A stretch of 63,239 nucleotides of DNA, filler included, from Basidiobolus ranarum (lineage: Eukaryota): assembly GCA_040143965.1 (NCBI GenBank). It is 3 parts of 3 records of this genome, joined end to end, with 100 filler letters (N's around TTAATTAATTAA, not from the genome) between each part and the next. Parts side by side here need not be neighbours in the genome. Positions count along the whole stretch, not along the records: positions 42,303 to 63,239 come from JASJQH010007092.1; 2 more parts are not named here. One strand, given 5' to 3'. Positions 21,162 to 59,122 of the stretch are shown here, piece by piece. The stretch's first letter is position 1; the number at the start of each line of letters is the position of its first letter. The notes beneath the pieces are model-generated. The model was given only the letters and a program-made list of their open reading frames with translations, was not told the origin of the DNA and ran no database searches. The position numbers and the translations under genes were made by a program.

Positions 21162-21261
21162 NNNNNNNNNNNNNNNNNNNNNNNNNNNNNNNNNNNNNNN
21201 NNNNNTTAATTAATTAANNNNNNNNNNNNNNNNNNNNNNNNNNNNNNNNNNNNNNNNNNNN
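21162..21261. other. Artificial contig-join linker / gap
   Basis: 44 N + TTAATTAATTAA (stops in all six frames) + 44 N. Confidence 0.98.
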
Positions 21262-42202: not shown

Positions 42203-42302
42203 NNNNNNNNNNNNNNNNNNNNNNNNNNNNNNNNNNNNNNNNNNNNTTAATTAATTAANNNNNNNNNNNNNNNNNNNNNNNNNNNNNNNNNNNNNNNNNN
42301 NN
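42203..42302. other. Artificial contig-join linker / gap
   Basis: 44 N + TTAATTAATTAA + 44 N, identical to the first linker. Confidence 0.98.
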
Positions 42303-54158: not shown

Positions 54159-55277
54159 TTACATTCTAACGCTGAAAGATGGCTGACGTCCTCCCTTCTT
54201 ACCACCGCCATTGTTGGATTTACCTGGTAAGCGATCGGAATACAACTTGCCAGAGCTATTCGATCAGATATGGTTTAGACATTAGGTGAGTGAAATTTAC
54301 GATGGTTCCCAGATGTAGCCTTACCCTGATGATCCCGGCTCTTGCTTCTGCTTAGAAAGACGGTAGTTGGCAGCACCCTTTGAAGCTGTATCCTTCAAGA
54401 TAATACTCAGTGTACGACCTATATGGATGAAGTACTTAGCATTTACTAAAGTCAACAATGCTTCTTTATCAAACGTACCATCAGCAACAACGTTGTTAAG
54501 CTTGTTGATTGCTTTGTGTGCGGATGCTTTAAGATTATATATAATCTCAGCATTTCCAGTTGGCCGAGTATTTTGATCATACAACAGAGTGCATTTTCTA
54601 ATTTCACCGAATTGAGAGAAGATAGCCTATATGGACACGTAAAGTGTCAAATTGGTGTTTAGTAAATGCGACAAAGTAGACGACAGCTTTACTGTGGGAA
54701 ATTATCTTACTTGAATATCTTGTGCAGAAGCTCCTCTGTCCAAGTTGCTAATGAGTATGGTAGCAGGACCCGCCTCGCCTCTAATGGAGATTTGCTGAGG
54801 TGTGTTGGTAATTCCCTTAATCTTGATCGATTTGTCTTCCTTTCCACTCTTTCCACCCAGTTGCACCGAGCGAACAGCGGCGCTAGTAGCGAGAGCAACG
54901 CTTCGGTTGACGTTTGAGTTGCGGCTTACTACGGTCTTATTTTTAGTATCAGGGTTAGCTTTGGTGAAAAGATCGTGTTTCCAGGGCACGTTTGTATCGC
55001 TTCTAGATTTCTTCTGGAGGAGAAAATACGTGAAATAGGGAAAGTGTCAGTCTTTTGCTTTTGTTTTCTTCCAATTAGTTCGAATAAAACTCTGTCTCTT
55101 TACCGTGTAAGGTTTGGTAGATGCTTTGGTAGCCTGTCTGCCAACTTGGTGGCTTCTGATTGCGCCACCACCTCTACTACTTTTTGGGTTGTTTGACCTG
55201 TTGTTAGGATTATTTGGTTTCTTGGGACCTTTGTCTTGTTTAATAATGTCATCTAAACTCATGTCGATTCTGTCCAT
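54159..55277 (-). CDS. RRM protein of ALYREF/Yra1-POLDIP3 type; multi-exon
   Basis: N-terminal MDRIDMSLDDIIK (UAP56-binding-like motif), WKHDLF, and an RRM (ILISNLD...FSQFGEI...TGNAEIIY...AINKLNNVVADGRTL). C-terminus SGKLYSDRL...FSVRM*. Confidence 0.8.
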
Positions 55278-55771: not shown

Positions 55772-57764
55772 TTAATTTCCATTCATTTCAACTTCGAGTG
55801 GAGTGGAGGCGCCAGAAGTAGGAGCCGAATTATTTTGACTAGTGTATTGGGCAAGTTGAGTTTCTAGCTGACGAATTTTGATATCCTTTTGAGCAATTTG
55901 ATTCTTGAAGTTTTCGTTCTCTTGACGGAGCTTGTGATAAGCGTCTTGGTACTGAATTGCAAGTAGAATAGAGGCATTAGTTTTCATTAGGTTAACAATT
56001 GCTCATTGACTTGGATATACCTCTTTCTCATTGGTGGGATGGATAACTTCTTCGGGTGCTTGTTGAGGAGCTGAAGAGACAAATGCCTTCTTCGACTTCG
56101 CCACGAAACCAGTCTCGAGACTGACAAGCTTGGGGCTAGCACTTTTACCTTCAAAGAACTCATCTGCAGTCAAAGCAGGCTCATCACTACGTGTTGGTGG
56201 GAAAACGTCCTCTTGGAATCCTTCAGCCTATTGTGTATTGATAAGTGAACGCCATGTCTTTAGTACATTGATAGACAGTCATGCAATTCTCTAAGCAAAA
56301 TACCTTTCTAGGCACAACAAATGAGACTGGCTCAATCGAATCACGGCACACTTTGTAAGCACGGGCGACTTCACAATCGCTAACATTTAACGCACGCTTG
56401 GGCATGTAAGCAATACCACGTTGTGGATCAGTTGATTTGAATTCTGCGAGGTATTTGAGGCTATCGTTCGCAAACTCATAATAGCGAATGTTACCGTCAC
56501 TGTAATATTTTCCAATAAACAAAACTGGTTAGAAGATGATGGCATGATGTTACCACAACAAACGTTAGTTTACCCCTGATAGGTGGAAGGGGTTAGTTGG
56601 CATCCATATGGGTTTCTTTGCAAAGTATACACATACCTTGCCTGCGAGATACAGCATATGAGTGTCAGCATCGTAGTATGGCATAAGCACACCAGAGGAA
56701 AAGTCAATAGACTCTTGGTTGAGTGGAGCGTTGAGGTTGTTGGAGTCCCAAATGAAAATCTGACGATCACTGGTCCTCGAGAAACCAGTGGTGGCTATTC
56801 TATCTTCATCACCGAGCCATACTACGCGAGAGCCCTTAATACCTTGGTGACCGTTGCCTTCCTATAAAAACACTCAATACATGTCTCATTGGGCGCAATA
56901 CTAATTTGGTATTACCTGGACAATTTGATTCGCTCTGACGTCGAAGACACGGATTTTCTTATCTTTGCAGCTGGTAACAAGGAGATTTCCGTTCCAGTTC
57001 CAGTCCATAGATTGAATGGCTTCCATATGACCAGTAAGTTGCTGCTTTTCAATTCCTTTTTCAATGTCCCAAAGTCTAATGGTCAAATCAGCACTAGAAC
57101 TGGCCAATACATTGTCTGCAGTAGGATGGAAGAGAACTTGACCAACTTTTCTGTTAATTTACAAGAAATCTCGTTAAAGGGCCTACTTCATATAAGACAG
57201 CTATTATTATCGAGCTATACCTTCCGTGGCCATTGAGAGTAAGTGCGGGAACAGTAACGTTATCTTCAAGAGGTTCCTCAGCAATATTCCAAATCATAAC
57301 TTTACAATCTTCACCAGCAGAGGCGATGACATAGTCATTAAAGTTGGAAAAGTCTGTATCGAGAACTGGACCAGCGTGACCACAATAGAGGAATGGGTTG
57401 GAGCTCATTTTACCTAATATTACAAAAGCAATTAGCTTTACCAAGCAAGGTGATTTTTTGTACGTTTCATAACAACTTACCAATAGACTCCAAAGGGATG
57501 ATGGCGAAAGCACCACCACCACCAGCATTCCAGTTGACGGAAAGGAAGCGCTACGAGAAGTATGTGGTTATTTTATTTGTTCGAAAATAATATGGTCTTA
57601 AAGTAATAATATTGTGAGAAACAAGATATACTTACAGGATTAACCTTGACAATATTGGTATCCCAAGCACTTGTAGAGATTCTCAAGTTATCGTAACAAT
57701 CATCGCGCTTCGCGGAAGATCCGTAAACGTGACGGAATTTCGAGGCTCGGATGAAGCGAGACAT
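55772..57764 (-). CDS. CRN1: Coronin (actin-binding WD40 protein); multi-exon, including a 2-nt microexon at 56574-56575
   Basis: MSRFIRASKFRHVYG, GGGGAF, GHAGPVLD, LVTSCKDKKIRVFD, TTGFSR, LYLAGKGDGNIRYYE, PQRG, EPVSFVVPRK, FQEDVFPPT and a C-terminal coiled coil. Confidence 0.96.
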
Positions 57765-58251
57765 GGTACTAACACAAGTGCTATTGAAATCAAGACAGGT
57801 TAGTCAAGGTCAAAAGGATTAGAGTACCTGTGAACTTCACCTGTAGAGGTAGGTAGTGAAGTGTTAAGAGTGAGAGAGGACAAGTTGAGTAAGACTTTCC
57901 GAGAATCTTAAAGCAAATATTTGTGAACCGAACCTCCGAGTTCGCCGTACAATAAAATAAATTGACGTGTTTCTACTGGAATCGTGAGTACCAACTTGTG
58001 GGTTTAATTTTATCAAGGAAGAATATTAATTGATCCAATTTAGATTCATTAATAAATGTACCACAAAAAACCAAATATTGACATTTTAATCACAATATGC
58101 ATTTATGTAAAATCCTATGTAAAGTTCTTCAGATTGATCAAGTGTGTCACTAATAAACAAGAGCGCTTAGGGCTAGCTAAACAAAACAACTCTTTGGTCA
58201 ACAGCATAATTTACAAGGGTTTGAGGAGAGGGCAATGAAGAGTTAAATATG

Positions 58252-59122
58252 CTATTCTTCAAGCCCAAAGAACTCCAGAGAGTTCTTGAAGGTGATCTCG
58301 GCTACCTCCGTGTTTTCACAGCCCCAGATCTCACCCAGAGCAATACAAATATCTTCCATTACTTGGTCTACCATCTCTAGTGTATTTGCGTCTGACTCTA
58401 TAAGTATCCTATTCTTAGGAATCATCAAGATATTGTCGGTGAGTTTCTTGGTCCTTAAGTTGACAAGTTTCGAAAAACTGAAATAGAACCGGGACCCCAC
58501 TTTCTTGGGCAATTTGAGAACAGCCTTAATTATTTCATGTGAACCAGAGTAAGAATGAAGCATAATCTTGGGTGGAAATTGGTCTGGTTTTAGTTGACGA
58601 AGATATTCAAGTAAATAACCGTGAGCTTGTACGCAGTGAACTGATACCACACGGTTTAAGCTGGCTGCTAAAGAAAACTGATATTTGAATATTTCCAGCT
58701 GTGTTGGAAGATCGTAACGTTCTTTGCTTACTGGATTCGTGGCAATTTTATCGAGACCTGAAGACAGTAACAAAATACTGAGTTTCAACAAAAATATTCG
58801 AACAATTGGCTAAGAAAGTAAAAGGAATACCGATCTCTCCAAGTACCGCTTTCTCATGCTTTTCAAGATACTCTTTCAATGTATCTTTCCATTGGTCGTT
58901 TTCTGCCACTTCGTGCGCATACCAAGGATGAACACCAAAGCCTGGAATGACTCTGTTGGGATTCTTCATTGCTGCTTCGTGAACCAGCTCCCAATCAGAA
59001 GGTCTCGTGCCCATTGGACAGTTCCATTTGGTTTTCATATTAAATACTTCGAGGTGCTCGGGATGGTCATGTATATGAGAATGTACATCGAAAAACTGGT
59101 TGAAAATATCGGGAGTAGACAT
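58252..59122 (-). CDS. TatD-related metallo-hydrolase (Scn1/YMR262W-like); 2 exons
   Basis: DVHSH, GFGVHPW, GEIG|LDK (intron 58830-58758), SVHCVQAHG, LHSYSGS and ILIESD. Confidence 0.9.

Follow-up and report, generated by a model that had tools for sequence, protein, structure and literature searches.

A two-nucleotide exon predicted between two old introns of the coronin gene in Basidiobolus ranarum

Internal exons of 1–3 nt are already documented in fungi and plants, and the GG exon of coronin described herein is not a new kind of splicing. The 1-nt microexons of the plant genes APC11 and VPS55 are, in the cited passages, internal exons shorter than a codon that are deeply conserved, missing from reference annotations, and absorbed into a larger exon where the flanking introns have been lost (Yu et al. 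2022, PMC8831610), and the coronin exon is similar in all these respects. The two systems differ, however, in that the plant exons are 1 nt long and were confirmed by RNA-seq and RT-PCR, whereas the coronin exon is fungal, 2 nt long, and predicted from sequence, and in that each of the introns flanking the coronin exon survives alone in a different large clade. Two-nucleotide internal exons of fungi are known from Coprinopsis cinerea, in which a total of 57 such exons were found in 50 genes, their omission usually leading to a premature stop; this is a catalogue of a single genome, and the cited passages address neither conservation across phyla nor coronin (PMC12230235). The exons treated in the passages of another study go down to 6 bp only (PMC1184071), and those on the short coronins, the same family as the gene under study, make no mention of a microexon (Eckert et al. 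2011, PMC3203266). With respect to intron position, near intron pairs are two positions that lie within less than 32 nt of each other in orthologous genes, the coexistence of both introns being assumed to be very unlikely in that insect-based analysis (Lehmann et al. 2010, PMC2891723). A literature search, with most subscription journals outside its coverage, gave no report of a GG exon in coronin. The stwintrons of filamentous ascomycetes, proposed as routes to small intron shifts, also consist of two short introns that are excised in succession from a small region, the inner intron interrupting the donor, branch site, or acceptor of the outer one, with no bases kept between them. A stwintron was rejected for the present locus, where the signals of both introns are complete and the mRNA requires GG.

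The window, that is, the whole stretch of 63,239 nucleotides of Basidiobolus ranarum DNA that was analyzed, is composed of several contigs joined, as seen from four 44-base runs of N arranged in two pairs at 21162–21261 and 42203–42302. The coronin gene sits entirely inside the last joined part. With GG included, the nine-exon model (Table 1) forms a single open frame of 478 amino acids, identical at 478/478 residues to KAK9718480.1, the public protein labelled as coronin of Basidiobolus ranarum; the comparison was made at the protein level only, and the glycine encoded across GG is already present in the public protein. The orthologue of B. meristosporus, ORX97330.1, also carries GKGDG. The predicted product includes DUF1899, a WD40 propeller, and WD40_4 in one coronin domain, aligns with the solved structures of Coronin-1A, 1B, 1C, and 6 with E values of 1e-112 or better, and matches the tail of Coronin-1C at its C-terminus. 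By these features it is an ordinary short coronin. Upstream of coronin, on the same minus strand, the 3' end of a TatD-related DNase gene (PF01026) lies at 58500–58255, and a probable coronin 5' UTR intron at 57840–57781, for which there are two candidate donors, GTGAAG at 57840 and GTACTC at 57828, a branch motif (GACTAAC), and an acceptor (TAG) located 16 nt upstream of the ATG. The downstream gene on the minus strand at 55269–54501 begins MDRIDMSLDDIIK and has an RRM (PF00076); we take it to resemble the Yra1/ALYREF mRNA export adaptors.

Table 1. Positions of the coronin exons, of the two introns flanking GG, and of the predicted branch motifs, counted along the window
Feature	Position	Strand	Remarks
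Coding exon 1	57636..57764	-	ATG at 57764; model protein identical to P0002
Coding exon 2	57481..57550	-	Splice model and public protein identity
Coding exon 3	57221..57413	-	Splice model and public protein identity
Coding exon 4	56916..57150	-	Splice model and public protein identity
Coding exon 5, 225 nt	56637..56861	-	Ends GGC AAG at K284, phase 0; splice model and protein identity
Intron A, 61 nt, phase 0	56576..56636	-	GTATGT...CAG; position common to vertebrate coronins and L026
Intron A branch motif CTAAC	56592..56596	-	Predicted from consensus; branch A at 56593 (-18), followed by a pyrimidine-rich stretch
Microexon GG, 2 nt	56574..56575	-	Bases 1 and 2 of the G285 codon; kept in L026 at 1374-1375
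Intron B, 74 nt, phase 2	56500..56573	-	GTAAAC...CAG; common to L026 and loci with B only
Second CTAAC, just behind donor B	56564..56568	-	At -66 in intron B
Likely intron B branch motif CTAAC	56528..56532	-	Predicted from consensus; branch A at 56529 (-30)
Coding exon 7	56304..56499	-	Begins with T (completes G285), then D286; reads T GAC GGT AAC
Coding exon 8	56021..56227	-	Splice model and public protein identity
Coding exon 9, with stop codon	55772..55951	-	Splice model and public protein identity

The end of exon 5, intron A, GG, and intron B all lie on the minus strand exactly where a preliminary description of this DNA had placed them. GG is an ultra-short internal exon (at most 15 nt), flanked on either side by a canonical GT-AG intron, and both introns are ordinary in length when compared with the other six coronin introns (54–85 nt). 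As to donor strength, GTATGT of intron A matches the consensus CAG|GTAAGT at 7/9 positions and GTAAAC of intron B at 5/9. Donor A might use the second CTAAC as a decoy branch point; the AG that follows this motif (56525) would lead to an out-of-frame product. Splice models that keep the frame were enumerated within 56700–56440, giving eight one-intron models of GY-AG type, 15 of AT-AC type, and five two-intron models. Only one of these 28, with two introns flanking GG, restores the conserved motif LAGKGDGNIRY, as the preliminary description had claimed; the one-intron GY-AG and AT-AC-type models were rejected, as none of them gives this motif. The arrangement of splice signals was further compared with 20,000 dinucleotide shuffles of the interior of the 137-nt gap, using criteria picked after the site had been seen: AG-GG-GT with 40 nt or more to either side was present in 256 of the 20,000 shuffles, in 146 after YAG was added, in 18 with a branch motif as well, and in 10 when a purine at +3 was also included.

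A comparison of intron positions in related fungi, as the preliminary description had proposed, led to the same intron–GG–intron layout in a second lineage. By metagenome scan, a total of 267 coronin stretches were confirmed and the best 80 were examined at the junction. Among these 80 loci, intron B alone was found in 40 (34 distinct), no intron at the site in 39 (cDNA-derived and genomic contigs being pooled), both introns in a single locus, L026, and intron A alone in none. L026, from a Glomeromycotina-like metagenome, is closest to Funneliformis proteins, and carries an intron A of 87 nt (1287–1373) beginning GTATGT, the GG exon, and an intron B of 85 nt (1376–1460). The intron interiors of L026 are unrelated to those of A and B in the window, and by eye three further intron positions are common to both genes. 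Also by eye, L026 has an extra intron (113–255) after the first 11 codons and is devoid of introns 3 and 4 of the window gene. The GG exon restores a conserved frame and motif and is conserved in another lineage, directly in L026 and indirectly in others.

Intron B alone is present in ascomycete-like and Mortierella-like loci, and open reading frames that read through it were found in Mucorales-like and basidiomycete-like sequences. One curated ascomycete-type model in the PMC3605371 archive also has a phase-2 intron B, and the same archive includes a coronin model of Anopheles without an intron at the junction. In supplement 1 of PMC3605371, a total of 17 exon records begin with GDGNIRY or GDSSIRY, all at phase 0, which corresponds to intron A alone; one of these is zebrafish Coro2C, and the remaining ones look vertebrate by sequence and by position in the file. 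Intron A alone is probably present also in chytrids, judging from protein read-throughs (P0057 and P0218). Three basidiomycete-like coronin loci without A or B have other introns close by, located after NIR (L075), before AGK (L089), or on both sides of the motif (L101), and the GKGD motif region is flanked by several lineage-specific intron positions.

Indirect indications for the GG exon in related lineages came from public gene models, for which the evidence outside L026 consists of proteins and not DNA. Intact G[KR]GD was counted in named gene-model proteins grouped by species label, leaving aside unnamed ORFs, Dikarya, insect records, and three fragments short of the site; the Rhizophagus cluster entered the count with 15 of its 20 members, those among the matches listed. 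The motif was intact in 0 of 32 models of Glomeromycotina (21 named species, among the matches listed) and in one of seven models of Entomophthorales and Zoopagales, the intact one being P0046 of Zoopagales, as against 66/66 in Mucoromycotina and Mortierellomycotina and 36/37 in zoosporic fungi as controls, 9/9 in Kickxellomycotina, and 2/2 in Basidiobolus, all these counts being non-independent with species repeated (many Glomeromycotina records) and annotation pipelines differing by group. Since the records are non-independent, a Fisher test on the counts (p = 1.5e-26) was not taken as evidence.

The errors of the faulty models are located at the GK-G-DG junction, and several of them can be decoded. 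GK-V... corresponds to read-through of donor A, GK-GSVK... to GG followed by the start of intron B, and GK-S-DG fits a junction of donor A to a site two bases short of acceptor B, while GK-RWKYKILR of Entomophthora muscae is DGNIRYYE in the frame left by GG skipping. In L026, a cryptic route consisting of 4 nt of A, GG, and B read-through is translated into VWVSKYIF, the same eight residues that are inserted in GBC48763.2 of Rhizophagus irregularis. The Logan protein P0275 differs from the model KAF0392119.1 of G. margarita solely by YVAGKG, six residues that the model is without. The uninterrupted frame of P0275 suggests that it is transcript-derived, an indirect sign that the mRNA of a relative carries the glycine. 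From such models we infer that the pair of A and B is present also in other Glomeromycotina, Entomophthorales, and Zoopagales, and the missed GG exon appears to have corrupted the public coronin gene models of arbuscular mycorrhizal fungi. The preliminary description had regarded the exon as obligatory, and this view gained support from the identical public protein, the same layout in L026, and the annotation errors in related lineages.

Taken together, we estimate at roughly 0.9 the probability that GG is a real, constitutively included exon between two independent old introns that are removed sequentially. The exon would exist because two old spliceosomal introns adjoin at a distance of two bases, of which intron A follows the Lys codon of GK at phase 0 and is found also in vertebrate coronins, and intron B interrupts the codon of the following Gly at phase 2 and is widespread across fungi. 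Each of them would be recognized as its own short intron, with its own full set of signals and a length typical of this gene (54–85 nt), and since the footprint of a spliceosome on acceptor A would overlap that on donor B, the two would be removed one after the other. For microexons in general, simultaneous assembly of the splicing machinery on the two sides of so small an exon is difficult (PMC8831610). For GG to be skipped, donor A would have to pair over 137 nt, bypassing the good branch point and acceptor in between. The preliminary description had taken the separate branch points to imply ordered splicing; each intron is indeed autonomous, but the branch points give no indication of which one goes first. 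Removal of A before B is rather likely in our analysis because A has the better donor (7 vs 5 of 9), a branch point closer to its acceptor (-18 vs -30), and the shorter length. In animals and plants, such properties have been associated with removal of the upstream intron first (PMC10250204), rules that may not hold for fungi, and SRRM4-dependent microexons are mostly processed downstream-first. The near-equal lengths of A and B in L026 (87 vs 85 nt) count against an order based on length. As the context upstream of donor B, AG-GG|GT, is identical before and after removal of A, the sequence is compatible with either order.

As the preliminary description had pointed out, joining donor A to acceptor B without GG connects AAG with TGA, and model translation stops immediately after K284; GG skipping in L026 likewise gives TGA at once. 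On this basis the exon had been proposed to double as an on/off switch, in which inclusion versus skipping, followed by NMD of the skipped form, sets the level of coronin. The weak donor B and the awkward layout, apparently kept across several lineages, are in line with such a regulated switch, which we nevertheless regard as improbable. Any 2-nt skip shifts the frame and the premature stop is therefore trivial, as also seen in Coprinopsis, where leaving out an exon of at most 3 nt introduces a stop in 63 of the 89 genes that have such exons (PMC12230235). The T with which the stop begins occupies the wobble position of the Gly codon, and it is present after intron B in 27 of the 34 distinct genes with B only, which are unable to skip. 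In Entomophthora muscae the skipped frame meets no immediate stop and reads on for 11 residues as RWKYKILRICQ. The donor of coronin intron 3 is as weak as donor B, the predicted RNA secondary structure around GG is no better than that of shuffles (z = 0.02), and many fungi have a coronin with one or neither of the introns. Within the T of B-only genes, the E. muscae frame, and RNA folding, no sequence sign was found of selection for the unproductive form. A further regulatory role of the GG exon, through skipping or intron detention, is about equally doubtful.

The mature mRNA can also be aligned as a single non-canonical intron of 135 nt with TA...CA ends (56635–56501), since the first base of donor A and the final base of acceptor B are both G and together imitate the exon; on this reading, the AG-GG-GT inside would be there by chance. 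The two readings give identical mRNA, so cDNA and the public protein fit both, and a mature junction read alone cannot prove the microexon. To our knowledge, TA...CA is not among the known spliceosomal termini, which counts against the single intron. Moreover, the internal signals that it leaves to chance arise in 10–256 of the 20,000 shuffles and recur in L026, and the positions of A and B each occur alone, with canonical ends, in other species; we consider this reading very unlikely. Equally unlikely is an improperly spliced locus, either a pseudogene or a gene using a one-intron route that keeps the frame at the cost of the motif, for although in-frame routes of this kind are possible on paper, all of them delete or disrupt a motif that is intact in 66/66 and 36/37 of the control models and aligns with the solved coronins, the remaining frame is intact, and no second coronin was found in the genome, the other matches being WD-repeat proteins of 25–41% identity (in an assembly that may be incomplete).

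Two canonical introns around a GG exon also bear on the origin of small intron shifts. Introns A and B, each found alone in orthologous genes and separated by far less than the 32-nt limit, make up a near intron pair, and vertebrates (A) and ascomycetes (B), when compared alone, would resemble a shift of 2 nt. In contrast to the mutual exclusion assumed for such pairs, A and B coexist in the window and in L026, that is, in at least two distant fungal lineages. On the commonly accepted species tree, the simplest reading is that B was gained beside an older A, that the two then coexisted for a long time, and that A was lost repeatedly; a second, independent gain of A is possible but needs more events. 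We find it fairly probable that the GG exon represents a surviving intermediate stage of what looks like a 2-nt intron shift, in which A, ancestral to animals and fungi, gained its neighbor B early in fungi, both having been present together at least since the ancestor shared by Basidiobolus, Entomophthorales, Zoopagales, and Glomeromycotina, and A having been lost in Dikarya, Mucoromycotina, and Mortierellomycotina. What appears as sliding would here consist of gain, coexistence, and reciprocal loss, without any phase-shifting step. An origin of B within the terrestrial fungi is not secure because two ORFs closest to zoosporic-type proteins (P0153 and P0176) read S-D into exon 7, as if the acceptor of B were present; intron B may be older than the terrestrial fungi.

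What is new in the coronin GG exon is its conservation across phyla, its systematic misannotation, and its probable standing as an extant intermediate in what looks like a 2-nt shift of an intron. The junction is apparently mis-modelled in every coronin model of arbuscular mycorrhizal fungi examined, including that of Rhizophagus irregularis, and in most of those examined from Entomophthorales and Zoopagales, and the same blind spot probably affects other genes of these genomes. The arrangement of A, GG, and B is a specific case that contradicts the view that two introns separated by only a few bases cannot occur together, and indicates that a small intron shift is possible without sliding. 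As a conserved housekeeping gene with two introns of about 60–90 nt around 2 nt, coronin offers a compact natural reporter of how a spliceosome working on short introns avoids skipping a near-minimal exon.
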